Below are positions 3,029 to 34,486 of a stretch of 64,000 nucleotides of DNA, piece by piece. The notes under the pieces were generated by a model that saw only the letters and a program-made list of their open reading frames with translations, was not told where the DNA came from and searched no databases. A program made the translations under genes and the position numbers. The stretch is taken from assembly GCF_003018255.1 (NCBI RefSeq), contig NZ_CP027440.1, one strand, 5' to 3'. Origin of the DNA: Escherichia coli. Its GTDB lineage: Bacteria; Pseudomonadota; Gammaproteobacteria; Enterobacterales; Enterobacteriaceae. The stretch's first letter is position 1, and every line of letters begins with the position of its first letter.

Positions 3029-4433
<1,405 letters not shown>

Positions 4434-4435
<2 letters not shown>

Positions 4436-4470
4436 ACCGGATAAGAGGCGCCAGCATCGCATCCGGCAAT
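4434..4470. repeat. REP (repetitive extragenic palindrome) element at the xseA 3' end / left island junction
   Basis: gtagaccggataagaggcgccagcatcgcatccggca has the CCGGATAAG...GCATCCGGC imperfect-palindrome signature. The same signature recurs at 35457, 42656 and 53939. Confidence 0.8.
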
Positions 4471-4503: not shown

Positions 4504-7500
4504 TTACTGGAAGCAGGTCACCAGACCCGGTTTATTTTTTATTAGCGTGATACTACAATCCTGCGCTCCAGTACCTTCGTCCATCCCACACTGTTGAGAG
4601 GACAAATAAGGAAAACTGGGTGAAGACGGCCATCCCAGTGAATTAAAAACAGTATGCAACAACTCTAATTCATTGTATGTCGGTGCATTTTCTATGCTGC
4701 CACACTGCCTTGCGATATCCCATTTACTGGCATCAATGATATGTGCAGAAGCCCAGTTTTCGTAGTTAATAATCGGTGAGGATACGGGATTAGCCCCGGA
4801 CGGCAATTCCGTCGTTAACAACGGTCGATGTAGCGATTTACTAGTCACCACTACCGTGTCTGCCATATGTCCCCAAAAGTGCGCCGATGAAACATTTGGG
4901 CTGGTTGGCACCGTAAAAATAGCATCCAGCGTGTCTGTCGCGGAAGCGTAATTAGCCAGAGTAACCGTCAGTGGCATTTTATAACCAGGGGTATTATCCT
5001 GGCGGAGCGTAAAACTTGCCGTCCCATCCGCGCCTGTCATGCCACTAATGGTATTACCGCTTTCACTCAGCGTAACAGCCGAACCTGATAACGGCTGAAC
5101 GACGAGATCGTCCATCGCCACTACATTGCCATACAACGTTGCCCCAGCGTTACGCGGCGATGCCTCACCACGTTTCAAAGTAAATTCAACATTCGGCACC
5201 GTATTCCCGGCGCTGTCTTTCACCGTCACGGTTACGGACATGGCTTCGCCTTTTTTCACTTTCGCCGCCTGAGTGGCTGCATCAAACGCTGTTGAGGTAA
5301 GTGTGACGCTGGAAACGGTTGAACGCGCGTTAGCCAGGCAAGGCTGAAATGATTTTGTTGAACCCGTATACAGCGTGCCATTTCTCAAATCAACCGACTG
5401 GTCTTTACCATCGGCGGATTTATCCTCTGCCCACCAGGTGTAATACGCAGGCCAGCCAGTTTCAGTGACAAACGTGTTATTCGGATAACGCGCAGACAAC
5501 GAACTTAAATCATTGAATAGTGGCTGCCTTGCTACTTCACAAGGGCTCACACTCGCATCTGATTTCTGTGTTGGGGTAAAGTACGGCCAGTCTTCATTAT
5601 TGTTATTGATCTTGCCGACGCCAGAAGTCGATGTCAGTTCACTCCACAATTTCGGGCGTTCAAATACCGCACCATTCACTGCCGTCAAGGTTGCTGGCAT
5701 ATGCCCCCAGTAGTTAGCCTTCGCAGAATCCGGGCTGGTCACTACCGTGAATATCAGGTCCTGATTAGCCGTAACCTGCGGATTTCGCGCCAATGAAGCT
5801 GTAAACGGCGTTACCAGACCGACGGTGTTATTTTGGGTAACGTTGAACGTTATCGTGCCATCACTGCCGGTGAAGCCGCTCCATGCCGACGTATTCTGGT
5901 TGAAGGAGATACGCGCCGATGTTGGGGTGACTTCATCTAAAATGAGATCATCTACGGTATTGGAGGATACAGAGATCCCTGAACGGCTTTTCGCCTGCAC
6001 GCGCTTGAGCGTAACACCTTCGCCGCCAACAGGATTACCATTGGCATCTTTGATCGTCACCACGATGGGAAGCATCTCACCTTTTTTCACAGATGACGTG
6101 GGGGTACCACCATTGCTGGCAGTTCGGCCCTCATCATAGGCAGTCGATGACAGCGTAAGGCTTGCTGGTGCCGAATGTGGCTGCGTCAGACAGAGCATTA
6201 AAGCGTATCCATTAATAGTCGTCGTCGATTGTCCCGTTTTCAAATTAATGACGCCGTAATACCACGTCAACGCGTCAGTGGTGCTCATTTCATAAGTCCA
6301 CCAATTTCCACTTCCGGCAGTTATAGGCAACCCCAAATCTGTCAGTATTGTCCCGCCTGGATGATCATTATATAGCCCCTGTAACTCATTGAGACGCGGC
6401 TGATACTCAACCGGGCAATCCGGCGTAACTTTATTGGTATAAAAAAGGTATGACCACGACTCATTATTATTACTTACCGAGGACCCCAAGGTCGCTTCTG
6501 CTGCCAGTAGCGGTCGTTTAAAGGTCACCCCCGCCCTACTGGTAAACGTGTCGGGCATATGACCCCAGTATTTTGCTTTCGGTGAGTTCGGACTGGTTAT
6601 CACAGTGAAAATAACATCCATCGTGGCACTTTTTGTGGTGTCGCGCATCAATGTTGCAGTGAGCGGAGTTGCCAGCCCATAAGTCTCGTTTTGCGTCACA
6701 TCAAAAGTCGCTTTACCATCACTTCCTGTCGTCAGAAGTGCCTGTGCCCCATTATTATAGAGTGACATGTTTACTCCGGCAGGGGTGACCGGCACGATAG
6801 TAAGATCATCATACGTAGAATCTAGCCTGTTTTTTGCACGATCCAACGCAGTCCCGCGTATGAGATTAAAGTTTGCGCCTGGCAACAGATTTCCTCCGCT
6901 ATCCCGCACAATCACCGTCATCCGGATCGCCGTACCTTTCGCCGCCGTTGCACTAGGGCGACCATCGTTGCTGGCCGTTTTCTCCGCATCCAGTGCCGTG
7001 GAGGTCATCTCTATAGAAGCTGCCACTGCATGAGGGTTTACCAGACAGGACACAAATGCCACGGTGTTTGATAATGCCCTGGAGCTTGATCCATTCGATA
7101 AATTAATAGACTGATCGTACCAGACGTTCGCGTAGGCAATTTTATCGTAAGCCCACCAGGTGTTAGTCAGCGGAAGGCCTAAATCGGTCCCTATCGCACC
7201 ATTAGGATGTTCACTGTATAACTCTTGAAATTCGCTTAATAACGGTTGATAAGGTTCGCCGCAGTCTGATTTGCTGACATCATTTTTTGCTGCCGTATTC
7301 AAAGAAAGCCATGATTCATTATTAGCCATGGTTGACTGCCCCGCTGGATGCTCGGCAGTAAGCAATGGCCGCTTAAAGGCAATTCCCGACCGGGTAGTAA
7401 ACGTTTCAGGCATATGCCCCCAGTAACTTGCCAGTGGCGTATCCGGGCTGGTTATGACGGTAAACATGACCGGTAATTTGTTGGATTCTATCGTCAGCTG

Positions 7501-10500
7501 ATACAACTGGGCGTACATATTGGTTACCAGGCCCATAGAATCATCTTGTTTTACCGTAAAGGAGGTAGTCCCGTCCGCGCCAGTCACCCCATAAAGCAGG
7601 CTTGAAGAACTATTCATCCTCGCAGAAGCGCCTGCCGCGTTAATTACCGTAATCGACTTATTTATCATCTCGGCATTTTGACGGTTCTTCGAGCCTTCAC
7701 GTCTGAGAATAAAGGGGACATTGGGCACGCTATTTCCCTGCGTATTTTTAGTCACCACGCGAATCACCGCGTCTTCGCCTTTTTTCACTTTCAACGCACT
7801 CAAGGTGTCGTCAACTTTGACAAATTGCGCCGTATCATTCGCCTCAACAATGATCTGACTGGCAACGGCGACAGGCGTGGTCCGGCAGCTCAGTAATGCA
7901 CCACCAGATGAGGGCATCTGCGTTTCATCTCCTGTCTTCAGCGAAACGACATCATACGTAAAGGTTTGAGTGAACGTATCTGCAACGGTATTCGAGATAT
8001 AGAACCTCGACACTGGCCAGCCAATAGCATCATGTAATGCGCTACTCCCCTGGTGCGCATAAATGGCCCTAAGTTCATTGTCAGTTGGAACATACTCCGC
8101 GCCACAACCATTTATCGAGGTATCGTTAGCCTGGCCCGACGGGAACGTAGACCAGGCCTCCCCCTCTTCCACCAGGGTACCGATACTGGTGGTAGCACTA
8201 TTCTCGTCCCTCAGCAAAGGCCTTCGATAAATAAGACCGTCATCGCCTGTCGCCGTTTCAGCCATATGCCCCCAGAATTTGGCTTTTGGCGAATCCGGGC
8301 TGGTAAGCACCGTAAAGACAACGGGAAGCGTCGATTTAGTGCTGCTGGAGGAATCCAACGCTGCCGTGAGTTCTGTTTTTAGCCCGGTAGTCTGGTCTTG
8401 CTTCAATGTGAAAGTGGTGATGCCATCAGCCCCCGTCACGCCATAAATAACCAGGGTCGTTGAAAGAAAATCATCTTGAGTATTTCCCCAGGCATCCGTT
8501 ACCGCCAGCGAAGCAATCGACGTCGTAGTTGACACATTGGCCCTGTTCACGCTGGTGTTTCGTTTGAGGGTAAATGCGGTATTTCCCACAGGGTTACCCT
8601 GCGCATCTTTAGTGGTCACTCGTAATACGGCTTCTTCGCCTTTTTTCGCTTTGACAACATTATTCGTACTGTCAAATTTTGTGGGGTCTGCAGCTTCAAG
8701 AACAATTTGGCTTGCCTTAACAATCGGCGTCGTCTGGCAGGTAAGCAGTTCTTTTGTGGCAGATGGAATTATCGAACTGGTGCCTGAACTGAGATTGACG
8801 GCCTTGAAGTCACGCTGTTCCAGGCTACTACTACCTGTTGTGCTGGAAAGGTAACTTGAGGCGACGGGCCAGCCCTGAACCGTTTTCATCGCATTGCCGC
8901 GGTTGGCTTCATACAATGACTCCAGCCCGGCCTGGGAGGGAACATATTCACTACCACAACCATTAGAGGCTGTGCTTATAGCCTGGGTTTGGGTAAATTG
9001 CGCCCAGTCTTCATTCTCTTCTGCAATCGCTGTTCGACCCGACGTACTGGATAACTCTTTCAACAATAATGGGCGTTTAAAGACCGTTCCATCTGCAGCC
9101 GTCACTGTTTCAGGCATATGCCCCCACATTTTCGCCTTATCGCTGTCCGGGCTGGTGACAACGGTAAAAATGGTATCGAGGGTCGCTTTTTTCGTTGTGT
9201 CTGAATAGAGCGCGACGGTCAGCGACGTTTTTGTGCCATGGGTATCCGGGCGGGTAATAGTGAGAATTTTAGTGCCATCGCTGCCGGTCATCGCGCTGTA
9301 TGCTGCGGCGGTATCATTGAGCGAAGTTTCATCCGCCAGGCCACTATTGATCACAACCGGCGCAACCAGCGCATCACCGCCACCGGCAATGTGTTTTTCG
9401 TTTGATCGGGTATAACCATCGCCACGCTTCAGCGTAAAAGGCATATCACCCAATGGATTGCCCTGAGCATCTTTTACCGTCACCTTCACCTGTAGCGTTT
9501 CGCCTTTTTTCAGCTTCGCCGCATTTGCTGCCGCGTTCCACTGCGCCGGGTCCACCACTTCCAGCGTAATGCTGCTGGCAGGATTGTTAGCCGTCGTCAG
9601 GCAACTGACATAAACCGCCGTGCTACCGCCAACGGTCCGCGCGCCATCGTTGAGGGCTATGGTGTAGTAATGCGGCACCTGATCCGCGGGCGAACTGCTC
9701 CAGTAGGGCTGACGCTGCGTTGGCCAACCGTGTACCGTTTGAACGGCGTTACCGCTGTTAGCATCATAGAGCGCGTTAAGCTGGGAACGGCGTGGGAGCA
9801 TATTGGCACCACAGCCACCTTTACTGGTGCTGGAAGTGTTGGCCTGGCTAACGCGCGACCACACTTCGTTATTTTCCGTTAATGTGCCGTCCGGGCTGGA
9901 CACTTCCGCAGCCAGCCGGGGTCGGGCAAAGGTTAATGCATCGACGGTAATCGTCTCATCCATATGACCCCACATCTGCGCGCCAACCGCATCCGGACTG
10001 GTGAGCGTAGTGAAAATCACATTGTAATTAACAGTATTGGGAATATAGGAGTTTACAGGCGCAATATTCAGCGGCGTCGCTAAGCCCACACCTTGCGGTT
10101 GCTTAATTTCCACAGTAGCAAAACCCTGCGCATCCGTAGTACCGGCATAGACTAAAGACGGTTGCGATGTTCCGTAGAGTGTGCCATTCATCTCGATTGC
10201 GCCGCGGGTTGGATCATCAAAACCTGTAGTCTGCCCCTGACGATTTTTCCCCATATCTTTAGTGATGGTGAACGCGGTATACGGCACGGGCGCATTATTC
10301 AAGGCATTAAAGGTGCGTACCGTCATGGTAATCGTTTCACCCTCTTTAGCCTGCGCTCTGCTGCTTGTGGAAACATCATGATCGGTGGTCGCAGCAATCT
10401 GGGCGACCATCTCATTGCCCGAACAAGAAAGGTAGTTTTGCTTAAAGCCGGAATAGGTGTCGATGTTGCCCGTGGCCAGGTTCACCGACGCGTGCGACGT

Positions 10501-12558
10501 CTCTTCCACCGCACTAAGATACGCTTTTTGCAACGTTGGCCAGCCATATTCGGTGCCGATGACATTGGCTGGATGTGCGGCAAACAAACTGTGCAATGAG
10601 CTTTGGCTCGGAATATGACCTAAACCACACTCAGCCTGCATACTGCTATTCTGATCAAACAGCGCCCAGTCTTCGTTATTTTCCCGCACTGCTCCCAGTT
10701 CGTTGTCGGTTTCATCCGCCAGCCGTGGGCGTTTAAAGATATTATTCGCTTCAATAATGCCTAACATATGTCCCCACATCCGCGCTTTGTCGGAATCAGG
10801 GCTGGTGATCACCGTAAAAATAACGTCTTTCTCATCCGAGGCGGTAAAATCACTGCGCATTTTCGCGGTGATGTGTGTTTTCACCCCCACGCCGCCTGGC
10901 TGGGTCAGCGTCAGAGAGGCCTCTCCGTTAGCATCAGTGATCCCTTCATAGGTATGCGCGTCAACTTTGCGAACGTTACTGCCACCATCAATTTGTACCG
11001 GATGCGTCTCCCACGCAGCGTCAGTTTGATTCTTACGGTTAACACCGTCATCCAGATGCAGCGAAAAGTAGTAGTAAGCCAGCGGCTGATCGTTGTTCTT
11101 GCTATCGGTAATCGTCAGGCGTAAAGAAGCCTCTTCCCCCACCTTTACTTTCATCGCTTTTATCGTCGAATCATAACTGCCCGGCGTCAGTACCAGCTTC
11201 GGTTCAACATCGGGCGCTTCTTTATCGACACAGCTCACAATAAACGTCGTATCGTCCGGTTTTTGCGCTTCGCTGCGGTTCGAAACATCCGCCGCATGGT
11301 GCTGCCCGCTCATCCCCGCCAGTGATGACCAGTAGTAGTTACCCTGCATCGGCCAACCAGCCACATCCTGCACTGACGTTGGCACCACCGTCGCCAGCGC
11401 ACCGAACTGACGCATTCCGGGCAAAATGTCGCAATGTTTATCCGCACCACTCCAGGTAAAGGTGGACCAGGTTTCATTGTGATCGTTAACCGTACCGTCT
11501 TCATTATCGACTTCCGCCGCCAGTTTTGGTCGACTAAAAGTGTAATCACGGGCCTTCAGCGTATCGGGCATATGACCCCACATTGTGGCCTGCGGGACAT
11601 CCGGGCTGGTGAGGACGGTAAAGATCACTGCCGTTTCACTGGTCTGAGCAATACCCGCGAGGCTCGCGACCAACGGCGTTTTTACACCAGGGGCGTTGGC
11701 CTGGGTGACCGTAACCGTGGCAACACCATTCGCATCGGTAGTACCACGATATTCCGTCGCGGTGGTGGTTAATTCGGTCGTGCCCAGTTTTACCGGCGCA
11801 GTATTGTTCACTACACCCTGGCGGTTTTCAGCATCTTTGCGTTTGATAACAAAAGGAATATTCCCCACAACATTACCGACGCAATCTTTGGTGGTGACCG
11901 TTAACGTGATACTGCCGCCAACCGTCGTTTTCGCCGCACCGGAGGATTCGTCATAGCCCGCGGCGCTGACGGAAATAAGGTCACCCTGCGCGGGCGCAAT
12001 CTTCAGCGTCACTTTCTGATCGGCGAGGGTCAGAACACTTTCATAGGGATAGCCCGTCGAGGTAAGTAGATATAACAGCGGCATGGTCTGCTGGGGGTCT
12101 GGCTGCGCCCAGGCGATCAGCGAACGCCCGGCAAGGCCCTGTGCGCAAAATGAGCGATCTGCGACTGGCTGTGGGTCCAGTAAGGTGTCCGGCGTCGCGG
12201 CATCCGCCCAAACTAAAGATACTGTCGGTGGCGTTTGGTTTTCCCAACGTGGTGTGGCAATGATATCGCCTTCTCTGTCTTGCGGGTTGGTGACGAGCAA
12301 TTTAGAGACGCTAACATCCGCGCTGAATTCACTCGGTTTAGCGGTAAACGCTACCTCATGCGTCTTTGCAGGATCCAGAAAGACACTGCCCTGGTAGACG
12401 GGTATGCTGGCACTGTCGGCGGTGGGCACGGTACCGTTAAATTCGCCGACCGTATCTGAAGAGTCTTGCCATGCAGATTCTGCCCATGCCCCCCCAGGCA
12501 GCATTGCGCTTATCAGCAATGCGCAAAACACAAGGATTTTATTCAGGGTCAGGGACAT
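4504..12558 (-). CDS. ratA: giant secreted repetitive Ig-like protein, RatA family (2684 aa)
   Basis: Uninterrupted 8055-nt ORF with GGAG 8 nt upstream of the ATG. The N-terminal Sec signal is [26 protein letters not shown]|ES. It contains nine reiterated modules, each holding a Big_1/invasin-like segment (KKGE..L.V.V.KDA.GNP...FTLKR...G.TG.DG...). It lies downstream of sinH-sinI between xseA and yfgJ, as in the Salmonella CS54 island. Confidence 0.85.
4507..12006 (-). repeat. nine tandem divergent coding modules (~804-858 bp each) inside ratA
   Basis: The protein motif (I/V/M)FT(V/T)xTSP(D/N)...(M/F/Y)WGHM recurs nine times. Its WGHM codons appear on the + strand as CATATGNCCCCA at 11569, 10765, 9961, 9115, 8263, 7411, 6556, 5698 and 4864. 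The spacings are 804, 804, 846, 852, 852, 855, 858 and 834 bp. Apart from this motif the copies differ substantially at nucleotide level. Confidence 0.9.
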
Positions 12559-12602
12559 GACAGAAACTCCACCGGTTGTTAAACGGACGCTTGTCGCATC
12601 AA

Positions 12603-12637
12603 CATATTTTGCTTAATCCGGGATTAAGCAAAATATG
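12603..12637 (-). promoter_or_regulatory. 35-bp perfect palindrome (17-nt arms, 1-nt centre) in the sinI-ratA spacer
   Basis: catattttgcttaatcc-g-ggattaagcaaaatatg. It lies 45 nt upstream of the ratA ATG and downstream of the hairpin at 12644-12667. It could be an RNA stem-loop (processing or stability) or a dimeric-protein operator. Confidence 0.5.
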
Positions 12638-12643
12638 CGGAAA

Positions 12644-12667
12644 CAGCATTCCCTTGCGGGAATGCTG
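12644..12667 (-). terminator. terminator-like hairpin just after sinI (possible attenuator before ratA)
   Basis: cagcattccc-ttgc-gggaatgctg is a perfect 10-bp stem with a 4-nt loop, 12 nt after the sinI stop. On the coding strand only TTTCC follows, so termination is likely partial at most. Confidence 0.4.
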
Positions 12668-12678
12668 CTGAGTACGCG

Positions 12679-13656
12679 TTATTTGTGTTTGTAAATAATG
12701 TGAAGTTTGTACCCCTGTACCCCGTCGCCGTTGGTCGGGATGGTAAGAGCTTCTTTACCATCGCGCGCAGGGCCGTTAAGGTTGGTTCTGGCGTCTTCGT
12801 TGGTCGCAGGGATGACCAGATTGTTATTATCGAAGCTTGAGTTGACGATACCACCCGAGGTGCCGAGCTGTTGGCTGCTGCCAGAAAGTACCCAACGGAA
12901 GTCATAATTGGCGGTAACGTCAGCATCGGTATCCGCATCAAACTTGCCATTTTTGTTCTCATCCGAGTACAGTTTGGCCACGTAGGTTTTGCCAAGTTCG
13001 ATTGGCGTACTGCCGTTGATAAGGTTGATACTGGTACCATCAACAAAGATGGCGACTTTCAGGTTCTGGTTAACTACCGGCCCTGGCGCAACGTTGTCGC
13101 TGTCGCTTCCGCCGCCGCTGGCAGTGGAAATGTCATAAAGATGCAGCGCAGTCCCGACGTTTGGCGTACCGGTCTGCGTGGTCGGCGTAATTTCAATACC
13201 GATATAACGACCACGGTCGTCATCGGTAAGAGTGTAACTGGTCACCTTCGTTGCCAGCTCTTTCGGATCGCCCCCCTGAGCGTCCTTGTAGCTCATCCAG
13301 CGGATAGTATCGATAGTCTTTGCGTTATCGCCCAATCCCCCAAGATCCACGTCGCCTTCGGTATCACCAATTTCCCAACTTACGGTTAATTTATCACCCG
13401 AGTAAAGACGCTTGTCCGTTTCACTGCCTGTCGGGCGAGCGCCTTTTAGATCAGAAGTCAACGTTACATGGTCGGCATCTGTCGTAGCGCTTCCCCCTTC
13501 CGAATAGAGCCACGGAATGGTTCCCTGGAAAATATTGGTTTCGCCGCTGTCGACCCAGGCGCTTTCTTCCGCCAGCGCCACAGGTGCCACACAATAACCT
13601 GCCAGTGCCAGCGCCAATGCGATCCGGGTCAGACCGCGTCTTTTATCCTGCTTCAT
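12679..13656 (-). CDS. sinI: secreted SinI-family protein (325 aa)
   Basis: ORF with the SD AAGGAGAG upstream and the Sec signal MKQDKRRGLTRIALALALAGYCVAPVALA|EE. It sits between sinH and ratA. Its C-terminal ~130 aa are paralogous to the SinH C-terminus, and its mature N-terminus resembles that of RatA. Confidence 0.85.
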   Translation of the reverse strand: MKQDKRRGLTRIALALALAGYCVAPVALAEESAWVDSGETNIFQGTIPWLYSEGGSATTDADHVTLTSDLKGARPTGSETDKRLYSGDKLTVSWEIGDTEGDVDLGGLGDNAKTIDTIRWMSYKDAQGGDPKELATKVTSYTLTDDDRGRYIGIEITPTTQTGTPNVGTALHLYDISTASGGGSDSDNVAPGPVVNQNLKVAIFVDGTSINLINGSTPIELGKTYVAKLYSDENKNGKFDADTDADVTANYDFRWVLSGSSQQLGTSGGIVNSSFDNNNLVIPATNEDARTNLNGPARDGKEALTIPTNGDGVQGYKLHIIYKHK

Positions 13657-13710
13657 TGATGCTCTCCTTAATGAACCTTCAGCGACTGGCCGACTGGCCT
13701 TACGCCAATC

Positions 13711-15888
13711 TTATTTTTTGGTATACAGCACGCGTAAACCGTATCCCTGCAAGCCATCTCCCGCTTGTGCGCCATAGGTTTGCGCTGCTTCGCGGTTAGT
13801 GGCCGGAATCACAATGTCCTCATTGGAAGAGTTCGCCTGTGCACCCACTTCACCATTGATGCTCTTGCCGGTAAATTCCCACTTGTAGTCGTACTGCGCC
13901 ATCTCTTCGTCAGTCAGTTTTTCGACCTGCTGGAAGACACCGTCTTTATTGCTGTCACGCCACAAAACAAATCGATAAGTGTTGTTGAGCGGCAGCGGTT
14001 CTTTATCTTTACCTATCAGGTTGCTGGGTTTAGCTGCCCCCACACGATAGATAAATGCATTTAGCCCACCAATTTCTGCCCCGAGGAAAGTGACATCCAC
14101 ATAGTTACTGTCGTCGTAGGGCGCAGCTTTTGCTTTCCAGCGATAGGTGCCGGGTAAGGTACTGGAGAGGGTGACAGTGCCCTTTTCTTTATCTTGTTTA
14201 GCGATAAAAACGCAGGGGTTGTCGGTCGAGCAAGGCTTGTTGGTTAACGTCACTCGTTTGTCCTGCGCGTCGTAAAGCCGCGGCGTGAGGTTATCTTCCG
14301 GCAGCGCATCGCCATTGCGGTCGGTGTTATCGCCAAAGCTGTCGGTTACATCGAGATCCATCACCACACCATCAACGCCATCTGCCTGGGCGCTGGCTTC
14401 GTGGCTGTGGTTGTTCTCTTCCGGCACGTTCGCGATGTTATTAACAATCAACTCAATTTTACGGTCCTGCTGAACGGTGATTTCCACCACACCAGAGTTC
14501 TGTCGGTTGCCCTTTTCATCTTCCAGTGCCAGACGTACTCGCCAGGTATTGAGTTTTTCTTGTTCGGCTTTGTCAGAGCTGTACTGCCAGGCGGGCAGCA
14601 CCAGGTTCCAGTGGTTATTGTTACCCTCTGTCAGGGTATTCTCTTTGATAACCGGCATAACCAGCGTGCGGGCAGCATTGTTTTTCGCCTGCCATGACGC
14701 AGCGACAATTTTGTAGTGGTGGTTGATAAGCGCGTTAATGGTCCACTTACATTTTTCCAGCCCGACCGCCGCTTCAGGCGTATCTTTAATGACACACTCG
14801 GGGTGTTCGTTGGTGGCATCCGCTTTTAACCACAGGGTGACATCAAGCGGATCTTTTTCTTTGTATTCCAGAACAATAAAGTTATTACGCTCAACAAAAT
14901 CATGACGACTGCCCATCAACGAGTGAGCCGCTTTCACTTTATCGCTATCCAATTGATCTTTTAGCGGAACGCCGAACTGATAATTAAGAGTGGCATTAAT
15001 GCTGACATCGCTGTTATCTCCGGTCCCCGCTTTATAGTCCGCCCCAACGGTTAGTAATGGCACCGGTTGATAATTCAGTCCAAGTGTTACCGCGTAGGGA
15101 TCTTTCTCCAAATTATCCGTACCAAAAAGGGCAACTTCATCGCCGTAATATTGCTCGAAGACAACTTTGCCCCCCAGTTGCGGATAAGAAGGTAACCAGG
15201 CTTCGGCGCGAATATCCCAGCCGCGCGCAGGACGCTCCTCATAAAAATCGAAATCTTCGGAGTCTTTCCAGTCAGAAAGCGGATGATAATAGTTGCCAGA
15301 GAATTTTAAATAATCAGTCCACGCTTCGCCGCCTAAACCTAAACGGCGATGTCCTCGGGTAAAATCATAATCATAAAATATATTCCCGCCCAATAACCAT
15401 TCATTAAAATTATGTCTTACCCCAAGACCAATATTCCCGATTGTACGATCTTCTTTTCGCTGCGCAGAAAATTGACTGAAATAAACAGTGGTTTGATTAT
15501 CGTACCAGGGAACAAAATAATCGATGGAACTGCCATCCAGATCGCCGCCCTGGCCAATGGAGAGGTTCGAACGGACCTTACCGTAGGGAGAGAGAGTGTC
15601 TTCAATATAAGATTGTGCGGTTGAGGTGATTTGACTTTGCAGATAGCTTCTGGCCTGAGATTCCAGCGCCTCAGGGGTCAAGTTTTCAAACCCTTGCGTG
15701 GCGGAGTTGATGATGTAATCGGCTCCGCGCTCTTTCAGCGATTTACCCTTGTTGGTTTGTTCATCCTGCTGTGCTGCCTGGCTACCTAAATCAGGTAACG
15801 ATTCGTTTTGCTTAACATTTATCTCTGGTGCCGCGAAAGCAGCACCAGAGATAAATGTTAGAATAATACAGCGTTTCCATCGCAGCAT
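13711..15888 (-). CDS. sinH: intimin/invasin-like inverse autotransporter outer-membrane adhesin SinH (725 aa from ATG 15888)
   Basis: The ORF-track entry begins at 15918, but that codon is TTG. The ATG at 15886-15888 has AGGGAAAG upstream and yields the signal peptide MLRWKRCIILTFISGAAFA|AP. Diagnostic inverse-autotransporter beta-domain motifs are present: GWDIRAEAWLPSYPQLGGKVVFEQYYGDEVALFG and MGSRHDFVERNNFIVLEYKEKD. Compare intimin GYDIRAEAYLP...EQYYGD and LGSRYDLVQRNNNIILEY. Confidence 0.88.
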   Translation of the reverse strand: MLRWKRCIILTFISGAAFAAPEINVKQNESLPDLGSQAAQQDEQTNKGKSLKERGADYIINSATQGFENLTPEALESQARSYLQSQITSTAQSYIEDTLSPYGKVRSNLSIGQGGDLDGSSIDYFVPWYDNQTTVYFSQFSAQRKEDRTIGNIGLGVRHNFNEWLLGGNIFYDYDFTRGHRRLGLGGEAWTDYLKFSGNYYHPLSDWKDSEDFDFYEERPARGWDIRAEAWLPSYPQLGGKVVFEQYYGDEVALFGTDNLEKDPYAVTLGLNYQPVPLLTVGADYKAGTGDNSDVSINATLNYQFGVPLKDQLDSDKVKAAHSLMGSRHDFVERNNFIVLEYKEKDPLDVTLWLKADATNEHPECVIKDTPEAAVGLEKCKWTINALINHHYKIVAASWQAKNNAARTLVMPVIKENTLTEGNNNHWNLVLPAWQYSSDKAEQEKLNTWRVRLALEDEKGNRQNSGVVEITVQQDRKIELIVNNIANVPEENNHSHEASAQADGVDGVVMDLDVTDSFGDNTDRNGDALPEDNLTPRLYDAQDKRVTLTNKPCSTDNPCVFIAKQDKEKGTVTLSSTLPGTYRWKAKAAPYDDSNYVDVTFLGAEIGGLNAFIYRVGAAKPSNLIGKDKEPLPLNNTYRFVLWRDSNKDGVFQQVEKLTDEEMAQYDYKWEFTGKSINGEVGAQANSSNEDIVIPATNREAAQTYGAQAGDGLQGYGLRVLYTKK
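14854..15636 (-). other. SinH inverse-autotransporter beta-barrel plus linker region (approx. ORF residues 95-355)
   Basis: The region spans SQITSTAQSYIED... to ...FIVLEYKEKD and carries the intimin/invasin beta-domain motifs listed for sinH. Boundaries were estimated by eye. Confidence 0.6.
15813..15860. repeat. 19-bp perfect inverted repeat with 10-nt spacer inside the sinH signal-peptide codons
   Basis: taacatttatctctggtgc (15813-15831), spacer cgcgaaagca, then gcaccagagataaatgtta (15842-15860). It begins 28 nt downstream of the ATG at 15888 and encodes LTFISGAAFAAPEINV. Confidence 0.9.
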
Positions 15889-15918
15889 GCACTTTCCCTG
15901 TGACAATGATACAGTCAA

Positions 15919-16097
15919 AAATAAGCTTTAATATTGTATCCCTGATTATTCAGAAAGGCATGTCATAAAGAATAAATATACTCTTAATTATTTAAATTAG
16001 TGATTTCACTCAATTACATTAGTTATTCCACTAATAACAGATTGTTTTACCATTCACATATTAAATATAAATGATAAAACAATATATTCACATGATA
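15919..16097 (-). promoter_or_regulatory. AT-rich ~180-bp region upstream of sinH (presumed operon promoter / right island junction)
   Basis: This non-coding stretch between the yfgJ stop and sinH is visibly much more AT-rich than its flanks, with runs such as aataaatata, ttaaatataaatgataaaac and tatttaaattag. One sigma70-like pair on the - strand is TTCTGA-N16-TATTAA. No GATC sites and no simple-sequence tract were seen. Confidence 0.35.
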
Positions 16098-16313
16098 TTA
16101 AGCAATAACAAATTCAACGCGTTTTTTAGATATTAAACCGTGCCCATGTTGGCAGAAATAATCCACAACACCACAAGCTTTTAACACTTGTAACGGCTGA
16201 TGACACTCAGGGCAAAGTGCCTGGACGGTAAAGTCTTTGTCGCAAGTTGCACAGTGGGCAGTCTCGCCATTGCGTTCGAGAGGGATTTTGCAGGTTGGAC
16301 AGTTGAGTGCCAT
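16098..16313 (-). CDS. yfgJ: small double zinc-ribbon protein YfgJ (71 aa)
   Basis: The ORF has cysteine pairs CPTC, CATC and CPEC plus C..H.H. Its C-terminal half QPLQVLKACG.VDYFCQHGHGLISKKRVEF matches my recollection of YfgJ. SD GAGGAG lies upstream. Confidence 0.85.
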   Translation of the reverse strand: MALNCPTCKIPLERNGETAHCATCDKDFTVQALCPECHQPLQVLKACGVVDYFCQHGHGLISKKRVEFVIA

Positions 16314-33825: not shown

Positions 33826-33841
33826 GCTTTTAACAGGCAAT

Positions 33842-33869
33842 AAAAAACCGCCGAATCTGGCGGTTTTTT
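33842..33869. terminator. bidirectional rho-independent terminator (sseA on +, sRNA copy 1 on -)
   Basis: aaaaaa-ccgcc-gaatct-ggcgg-tttttt: a GC stem flanked by an A-run and a T-run. Confidence 0.8.
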
Positions 33870-33941
33870 ATTGCTGGTCTGGTTCGCGGCCTTTCCAGCA
33901 GATTGGCTTGTGTTGCATGAGCAACGCAGGTGCTTCACAGC
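33842..33941 (-). ncRNA. candidate ~100-nt sRNA, copy 1 (RyfB/RyfC/TimR-like paralog with diverged 5' seed)
   Basis: - strand promoter TTGACA (33971-33976), 17 bp, GAGTAT (33948-33953), identical to copy 2. The transcript would end at the 33848-33863 hairpin plus U-run. The 5' end is predicted only from the promoter position. Confidence 0.5.
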
Positions 33942-34263: not shown

Positions 34264-34486
34264 GACACAATACTCGCCAGTAACTCTCTTTTTGTCAAGT
34301 AAAAGAGAGTTATTATTGTTCTGTTAGTGTATTATCCACTGCGGACCTTTCCGCCGTCTCGCAAGCGGGCGCTGGCTTAAGGAAAGGATGTTCCGCGACC
34401 GTTAGAGCAAGCGCGTCTCAGCGCTTGCTATCGCGGCAATATCGCCAGTGGTGCTGTCGTGATGCGGTCTTCGCATGGACCGCACA

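Follow-up and report, generated by a model that had tools for sequence, protein, structure and literature searches.

Two conserved hairpins between sinI and ratA of Escherichia coli as a probable RNA module at the head of a giant adhesin gene

The stretch of Escherichia coli DNA analysed here (64,000 nucleotides of NZ_CP027440.1, called the window below) carries the sinH-sinI-ratA ('ila') cluster on its minus strand, and the 120-nt spacer between sinI and ratA contains two adjacent hairpins, HP1 and HP2. Together with their flanks, these hairpins make up a module that occurs as a single copy after sinI in Escherichia, Salmonella, Citrobacter, Kluyvera, Pseudocitrobacter and Superficieibacter. 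In transcription order, the module reads stop codon, 8–14 nt, HP1, three to five Us, CCGC, HP2 and GUUGA. The pattern of base changes makes it very probable that the module is a conserved RNA structure selected on the sense strand. We propose that HP1 acts as a leaky terminator and HP2 as a processing or stability hairpin, and we give this combined explanation a probability of about 0.5. A search of the literature found no description of this two-hairpin element.

Structure of the two hairpins

HP1 (12644–12667, minus strand) has a 10-bp G+C-rich stem (CAGCAUUCCC/GGGAAUGCUG) and a GCAA loop. The repeat search showed that its 10-nt arms (12644–12653 and 12658–12667) match at 100% across the 4-nt loop, and the hairpin begins 11 nt past the sinI stop codon. 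The stem contains six G-C pairs, and the 24-nt stem-loop has a folding energy of −17.4 kcal/mol. Folded alone with two flanking pairs, HP1 reached −20.6 kcal/mol (z = −7.2). HP2 (12603–12637, minus strand) is a 35-nt perfect palindrome, CAUAUUUUGCUUAAUCC-C-GGAUUAAGCAAAAUAUG. Its 17-nt arms (12603–12619 and 12621–12637) match at 100% with 1 nt between them, and it folded alone at −19.1 kcal/mol (z = −8.2). Both hairpins were also recovered from the alignment and by RNAalifold. Between them lie the U-run that follows HP1, which is UUU in the window (12641–12643, minus strand), and the CCG (12638–12640, minus strand) of the near-invariant CCGC linker, whose last C (12637) is the first base of HP2. 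The complete spacer reads TAA, 11 nt, HP1, UUU, CCG, HP2, UUGA, GGAG, 8 nt and AUG. A sequence-only reading of the window had described two perfect hairpins in a 120-nt spacer, with UUUCC after the first and GGAG ahead of ratA; the repeat search and direct reading confirmed all of these statements and their coordinates. The gene names it had used, sinI and ratA, are right in kind according to the annotations of the flanking genes.

The 135-nt stretch around the spacer folded into HP1 and HP2 at −52.1 kcal/mol (z = −6.3), and 0/200 shuffled sequences folded as well. The whole window contains four distinct perfect hairpins (arms of at least 10, loops of 3–8), two of which are HP1 and HP2, against a Markov-1 random expectation of 0.37. 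The chance expectation of a 17-bp perfect hairpin is approximately zero. No second copy of the HP1 or HP2 sequence was found in the window even when three mismatches were allowed. A covariance model built from the module gave one match per locus and none elsewhere in the window, and in complete E. coli genomes the matches were confined to the sinI-ratA spacer. The apparent count of two places per genome came from the palindrome matching its own opposite strand, and a second locus was rejected. The module is absent from the ratA-ratB spacer of Salmonella, where an unrelated hairpin is present. An Rfam 15 scan of the spacer (E ≤ 10) returned only chance-level matches to miRNAs and snoRNAs (E 0.8–3.4), far below the gathering scores.

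Conservation, covariation and strand

A SinI search with one genome per species yielded 16 loci, including Pseudocitrobacter, Citrobacter, Superficieibacter and several Escherichia species; loci of Salmonella enterica, S. bongori and Kluyvera were added separately. Every sinI-linked spacer except that of Leminorella reads as the full module order. A metagenome scan with the pattern TTTGCTTA-N8/9-TAAGCAAA-N3-5-GTTGA returned 67 stretches, 58 of which have HP1 and UUUUCCGC immediately upstream. The remaining nine are AT-rich, lie outside an HP1 context and occur at roughly the chance level. The SinI proteins of the module-bearing genera are only about 42–48% identical, and the core and flanks of HP2 are invariant over them. 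Three deeply diverged alleles occur in E. coli, with approximately 97–100%, 68% and 45–58% identity in the flanking genes, and all of them keep HP1 and HP2 with changed bases. The module is 62–76% identical to the window version, compared with 25–52% (near saturation) at the third codon positions of sinI. The neighbouring coding DNA is 57–72% identical, and the module is at least as well conserved. This non-coding module is conserved well above the synonymous-site level.

HP1 was present in all 27 orthologues, starting 8–14 nt after the sinI stop codon, as a 10-bp (occasionally 9-bp) stem of −15 to −19 kcal/mol (mean −17.0) with a variable loop of 3–6 nt. HP2 had a mean energy of −17.6 kcal/mol over the same 27 sequences. 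Its 8-bp core, UUUGCUUA/UAAGCAAA, was invariant in 27/27 versions. The outer stem of HP2 covaries, and the apical part is more variable, with few double changes, frequent unpaired positions and loops of 3–7 nt.

Several natural variants were found. In a rare third allele of E. coli/Escherichia (L003 3027–3200, and L004, L020 and L037), a bacterial interspersed mosaic element (BIME) of about 175 bp lies between the 3′ arm of HP1 and the U-run. It consists of two inverted repetitive extragenic palindromic (REP) units with a 13-nt duplication (GCAAGGGAATGGT), and HP2 and its flanks are intact. In Escherichia sp. MOD1-EC7003, HP1 and HP2 lie 48 nt apart. Many intergenic palindromes of E. coli are REP or BIME sequences, and with a true BIME inserted in this very spacer, the hairpins might be functionless relics of a REP-like element or of a miniature inverted-repeat transposable element, or else chance palindromes. 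We consider this extremely improbable, as the BIME insert occurs in at least 40 places per E. coli genome whereas the module is single-copy, covaries across genera, is conserved above synonymous sites and has a chance expectation near zero.

In Citrobacter murliniae (L014 4420–7330), the ratA-like gene is split into short open reading frames (ORFs), and HP2 has a degenerate 3′ arm (TAATCAAAA, where CTC is extra). This single anecdote is consistent with HP2 serving ratA. Leminorella has kept HP1 and U5, which are followed by a long second hairpin of unrelated sequence just ahead of the start codon. The two-hairpin architecture outlives its sequence.

Covariation was assessed on an alignment of the 27 distinct module sequences with 26 pairs, 10 in HP1 and 16 in HP2. 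Standard pairs filled 96.1% of the cells (99.6% in HP1), compared with 38–48% when the 3′ partners were slid by 1–3 columns. Compensatory double changes occurred at half of the pairs (13/26), namely 7/10 in HP1 and 6/16 in HP2. The observed paired fraction, double-change counts and covariation score were reached in 0/500 column shuffles, and RNAalifold, run unguided, returned the same two helices.

The non-Watson-Crick cells distinguish the two strands. On the strand running from sinI to ratA, 58 cells were of the G·U type, at 13 pair positions, and only one was of the A·C type, at one position (sign test over positions, 13 vs 1, p ≈ 0.002). A·C is the mirror type, that is, the wobble as read on the opposite strand. 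A typical series at a single pair runs U-A, U·G and C-G, and the C·A intermediate is absent. The covariance model scored 84.5 bits on the sense strand and 35.2 bits on the antisense strand. Because of the ratio of 58 G·U-type to one A·C-type cell, the pairing is judged to be selected on the sense strand, with the sinI-to-ratA transcript as its simplest carrier, and not as a duplex-DNA operator.

The sequence-only reading had also offered the AT-rich palindrome as an operator for a dimeric regulator. In that case, HP2 would be a DNA site from which transcription into ratA is blocked or activated, and the RNA hairpin would be a by-product. The invariant 8-bp half-sites TTTGCTTA and TAAGCAAA, held at a nearly fixed spacing of 8–9 bp in 27/27 versions, are what such a site would look like, and invariance of primary sequence to this degree is seen more often where a protein recognises DNA than in a plain stem. 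However, the arms outside the core are kept complementary by compensatory and G·T-type changes (58 against one A·C-type), which a dimer would not impose. No promoter-like site lies nearby, and GTTGA lacks a −10 partner. The 64 kb contain a single occurrence of the motif, the loci hold no further one, and in metagenomes it was found only after sinI, bar about nine AT-rich chance matches, which argues against a regulon. The wobble asymmetry, the missing promoter-like site and the single copy all disfavour an operator, and we regard it as improbable.

Proposed role in read-through and processing

HP1 has the hairpin of an intrinsic terminator: a G+C-rich stem-loop on the transcribed strand at a gene end, with a short loop and a stem within the usual range of about 5–14 bp. 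Us directly follow it in 25/27 orthologues; the exceptions are L017, which has no U-run, and the BIME allele, which has CUUCUCC. The run is UUUU in most orthologues (UUUUCCGC) and UUU in the window allele as well as two or three more; L018 and Leminorella (L015) alone have U5. The U-tail is short, and the near-invariant CCGC directly after it fixes its length. The constancy of this short tail over such an evolutionary range suggests selection for incomplete termination. The anatomy of HP1 supports a weak or partial terminator at best, or a 3′-end cap for the sinH-sinI RNA. Judging from this anatomy, it is fairly likely that HP1 terminates a fraction of transcripts. A ribosome terminating at the sinI stop codon, 8–14 nt from HP1, could disturb formation of the hairpin, given the size of the ribosome footprint. 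Read-through could be coupled to sinI translation by way of this ribosome.

HP2 is not a terminator because it never has a U-run after it. GUUGA always comes next (12603–12599 in the window, where its G is the last base of HP2). The earlier remark that neither hairpin has a convincing U-run holds for the window, with UUU after HP1 and none after HP2, whereas HP1 is followed by UUUU in most orthologues. The suggestion that both hairpins are partial terminators or 3′-end stabilisers fits the anatomy of HP1, but the two hairpins are not equivalent and the terminator part does not extend to HP2.

A scan for sigma-70-like promoters over the 3′ end of sinI and the spacer found none for ratA; the lone sense-strand match (12563–12536) would start transcription inside ratA. 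GTTGA(A) was also considered as a −35 element and rejected: none of the alleles has a −10 at 16–18 nt, and the L002-type allele places GTTGA(A) only about 35 nt from the ATG, with the Shine-Dalgarno sequence in between. With no sigma-70-like promoter of its own, ratA probably needs read-through, and therefore the module would be able to set the ratA:sinI ratio. The ratA gene is maintained as an intact 8-kb ORF (2684 codons), fitting incomplete termination at HP1. Incomplete termination also agrees with reports that uropathogenic E. coli is attenuated by deletion of cluster genes (PMC12928451) and that sinH and sinI are transcribed together (PMC12525524, with reference to Shea 2022).

We propose that the module works as follows. 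HP1 with its short U-run would be a leaky intrinsic terminator that ends a share of the sinH-sinI transcripts and caps their 3′ ends against exonucleases. The ratA gene would be expressed only by polymerases that read through HP1. On the read-through RNA, HP2 would form a helix of about 20 bp whose base absorbs the U-run of HP1, and this helix would act as a processing or stability determinant. An RNase E-type cut might fall in the short U-rich linker (GU|UUU), or an RNase III-type cut in the long helix; with each of them, a 3′-capped sinHI message would be parted from a ratA message that starts with a 5′ hairpin. Termination frequency and processing would together fix the ratA:sinHI ratio. 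The combined explanation assigns HP2, as its most likely function, to processing or stability at the head of the ratA message; the specific role of a 5′ stabiliser or processing site is put forward tentatively.

The extended HP2 helix (12599–12641, minus strand) adds the pairs G12638·U12602, C12640-G12600 and U12641-A12599 to the 17-bp stem and leaves a single C and a single U bulged out. It was predicted in the minimum free energy structure of 26/27 orthologues and in the RNAalifold consensus; L017, which has no U-run, folds differently. In these 26 orthologues, HP2 with its extension is a near-perfect helix of 19–22 bp with a 1-nt bulge per strand. The U-run and CC after HP1 are predicted to pair with GUUGA(A), so that the U-run would be the foot of HP2. 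In L007, a change of CCGC to CAGC turns a C/U mismatch of the extended helix into an A-U pair. HP1 and HP2 would stand nearly back to back on the read-through RNA, with 0–3 free nucleotides between them.

The core motif of RNase E is RN|WUU (PMC5222698), and the linker GU|UUU (GU|UUC in the window) fits it; in the extended helix, however, the predicted partner of these Us is GUUGAA, and such pairing would hide them. Precedents exist for both halves of the proposal, namely operon-internal 3′-protective hairpins without a full U-tract (malEF type) and RNase E cuts just upstream of 5′-protective hairpins (papBA type) (PMC5927463).

HP2 may instead be an RNase III target for negative retroregulation, as in lambda sib. 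The read-through RNA would then be cleaved and the message of sinI, ratA or both would decay, while RNA terminated at HP1 would escape. RNase III substrates have about two turns (~20 bp) of near-perfect double-stranded RNA. The extended HP2, at 19–22 bp in 26/27 orthologues, is of this size and forms only after HP1 has been read through. RNase III needs little sequence specificity, however, so the invariant core would go unexplained. This possibility largely overlaps the leaky-terminator explanation and differs from it mainly in the sign of the effect on ratA. As a separate explanation, we find it rather unlikely.

Another possibility is that HP2 with CCGC and GUUGA is a dedicated cis-regulatory RNA. 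It would be a site for an RNA-binding protein or a small RNA, or an RNA that modifies polymerase or blocks Rho and so enables transcription of the full 8-kb ratA. The core and flanks are invariant although SinI is only about 42–48% identical across genera, and the element is placed at the head of an unusually long gene. No ops/RfaH site, and so no known antitermination signal, was found in the cluster leader, and there was no match to an Rfam family. The core, CCGC and GUUGA together imply, as far as sequence can tell, a sequence-specific partner. We keep open a partner on RNA and consider one on DNA less likely, on account of the wobble asymmetry, the missing promoter and the single copy. These arguments are purely circumstantial and yielded no candidate partner, and a double-stranded core is poorly suited to recognition of a specific RNA sequence. 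When the cluster was searched for another conserved sequence able to pair with the core, only scattered, non-syntenic matches came up. A dedicated RNA of this kind therefore seems doubtful to us. We put at the same low level the wider claim that the SinH/SinI/RatA system has, in HP2 and its flanks (UUUUCCGC ... GUUGA), a sequence-specific cis-regulatory RNA motif that has so far gone undescribed. If the claim were true, HP2 would dock a dedicated RNA-binding factor or make transcription of the 8-kb ratA resistant to termination, and would switch production of the giant adhesin instead of simply tuning mRNA stability.

Several points weigh against the combination of leaky terminator and processing hairpin on a selected RNA. 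G·T tolerance is equally expected of a strand-specific hairpin in single-stranded DNA, which makes RNA the simplest reading and not the sole one. The window tail UUUCCGCA has three Us, falls short of the U-tract of about 7–8 nt expected of a terminator and was not called by the terminator scan, which required at least 5 T within 8 nt 3′ of the stem. HP1 might merely be a 3′-protective hairpin that causes no termination at all. The pairs of the HP2 extension never vary, so covariation cannot test them. Neither a generic stabiliser nor a site for RNase E or RNase III would need an invariant 8-bp core, which points to something more specific. The promoter scan covered sigma-70 consensus-like sites, and ratA may have its own promoter of another type. 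The literature and supplements that were searched contained no 3′-end or cleavage data for sinI/ratA, and neither gene name was listed in the TIER-seq supplements; for this reason, all of termination, read-through and cleavage is inferred.

Taken beside known systems, the module most likely joins the action of an intra-operon attenuator to that of protective or processing hairpins. Like intrinsic terminators that serve as attenuators within operons, HP1 has a 10-bp G+C-rich stem, a 4-nt loop, a position 8–14 nt past a stop codon and an adjoining U-run, and often an upstream AA able to pair with the first Us. Unlike them, its U-run is only 3–5 nt long and gives way to the near-invariant CCGC, and the window version stays below 5 T in 8. 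A stable, conserved hairpin at a cistron boundary without a full U-tract is also the mark of the malE-malF-type 3′-protective hairpins (Dar & Sorek 2018, PMC5927463), and the sinI-ratA module shows it. In that type, the upstream message is expected to be more abundant than the downstream one, and the same would be expected of sinI and ratA. The cases in PMC5927463 are mostly single hairpins inside the downstream ORF, whereas here two adjacent hairpins fill the spacer and one has an invariant core.

The likeness to papBA processing lies in a short U-rich linker that fits RN|WUU and is directly followed by a long hairpin where the cistron of an adhesin subunit begins. The present case differs in that the linker may be nearly all absorbed into the extended HP2 and that the downstream gene is an 8-kb adhesin and not a pilin. 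As in the lambda sib/RNase III system, the long helix is complete only on transcripts that read through the upstream terminator; sib, however, overlaps the terminator itself, whereas HP2 forms a hairpin of its own and has just the U-run in common with it. REP/BIME elements are likewise intergenic palindromes between convergently regulated cistrons, and a BIME occurs in the same spacer in one allele, but HP1 and HP2 are single-copy and unrelated to REP in sequence.

SinH is a vaccine candidate, and sinH-sinI-ratA is a virulence-associated locus of extraintestinal pathogenic E. coli and Salmonella (PMC9937491, PMC12525524, PMC12928451). The locus has medical relevance, and the comparison gave a very clean signal. 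The module at the sinI/ratA junction offers a testable handle on the proportions in which the giant RatA, SinI and the translocator-like SinH are made. As a cis-regulatory RNA, it is likewise a clean candidate for a new curated family in Enterobacteriaceae. If the HP2 core has a specific partner, that partner would be a new regulator of a large-adhesin operon. If it has none, the module would add one more well-documented case of attenuation and differential decay within operons. Ordinary fine-tuning of the operon is the most likely function.

Locus, neighbouring genes and other elements

The 661 bases around the module are 100% identical to an E. coli chromosome, and the sinI-ratA locus was found in 1691/5426 complete E. 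coli genomes. The minus strand of the window carries der, a zinc-ribbon gene, sinH, sinI, a ratA-like gene of 2684 codons and xseA, in this order. The sinH gene (13711–15888, minus strand; ORF, with the ATG read) is the first gene of the cluster, encodes an intimin-like inverse autotransporter and is annotated in the near-identical NZ_CP027452 and in NZ_CP054353. The sinI gene (12679–13656, minus strand; stop TAA at 12681–12679) is intact by ORF and annotation and encodes a SinI family autotransporter-associated protein of 325 aa. The ratA-like gene (4504–12558, minus strand) is an intact ORF for a giant adhesin of 2684 aa, annotated as an adhesion-domain protein, and its orthologues carry BIg21/InvE_AD repeats. 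Its Shine-Dalgarno sequence, read as GGAG (12567–12570, minus strand), lies 8 nt ahead of the ATG (12558–12556) and is kept as CTGGAG/GGTGG among orthologues. In strain 2014C-3338 (NZ_CP027452, 6074–9282), the spacer is 100% identical to that of the window, and the annotation pipeline PGAP marks sinH as frameshifted and sinI as having an internal stop; in contrast to these calls, both ORFs are intact in the window.

A third hairpin, HP0 (GAUUGGC-GUAAG-GCCAGUC; 13692–13710, minus strand), was found by eye right after the sinH stop codon. It has no U-run and is followed by the conserved CCGCUGAA, which resembles the CCGC...GUUGAA that flanks HP2. Inspection by eye of six orthologues showed a conserved position and compensatory A-U/G-C changes, including those in Salmonella (GAUCAGC/GCUGAUC, GAUCGGC/GCCGAUC and GUCAGC/GCUGAC). 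HP0 belongs to the same operon-internal set of structures as HP1 and HP2.

The C-terminal ~115 residues of SinI are 31–36% identical to the C-terminus of SinH (tblastn; window 12679–13029 vs 13711–14020, minus strand; also L002 and L005–L008). The literature likewise describes SinI as similar to the passenger domains of SinH. Given this likeness, there is a possibility that the spacers downstream of sinH and sinI are paralogous too.

Other candidate elements in and near HP2 were rejected. The upstream ORF seen in the window in or after HP2 (AUG UUG AUG ... UAA) has not been kept in other alleles. Within the loop of HP2, a GGA of the CsrA type is limited to the window and two other versions, and a sequence downstream of HP2 in the window that resembles rrn/lambda boxA (GUUUAACAA) is not conserved. 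An attC-like element, with GTTGA as the GTTRRRY core, was rejected by inspection, as the inverse core is missing and RRRY is mismatched.

Directly upstream of sinH, 18 of the 19 loci checked carry the zinc-ribbon gene (16098–16313 in the window, minus strand), which encodes a yfgJ-like protein of 71 aa with the Pfam domain Zn_ribbon_6. It stands beside sinH also in Kluyvera, where the next gene further upstream differs. Leminorella is the only locus checked that lacks it, and is also the one without the HP2 sequence. The adjacency of the zinc-ribbon gene and sinH may be plain synteny. The region of about 200 nt upstream of sinH (15890–16100, minus strand) is AT-rich, with a GC content of approximately 0.41–0.44 compared with 0.50 in the cluster, and is likely the promoter and silencing region of the cluster.

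Further palindromes lie in the window. A REP-like palindrome (GCCGGATGCGATGCTGGCGCCTCTTATCCGGTCTAC; 4432–4467, minus strand), recognised by eye from the REP consensus, is located between the ratA stop codon (4504–4506) and xseA. Of the two perfect hairpins found besides HP1 and HP2, the one at 33837–33874 carries A6/T6 on the two sides of a 16-bp stem (GCAATAAAAAACCGCC...GGCGGTTTTTTATTGC) and resembles an intrinsic terminator that works in both directions, and the one at 34281–34312 is a 12-bp AT-rich palindrome (TAACTCTCTTTT...AAAAGAGAGTTA).

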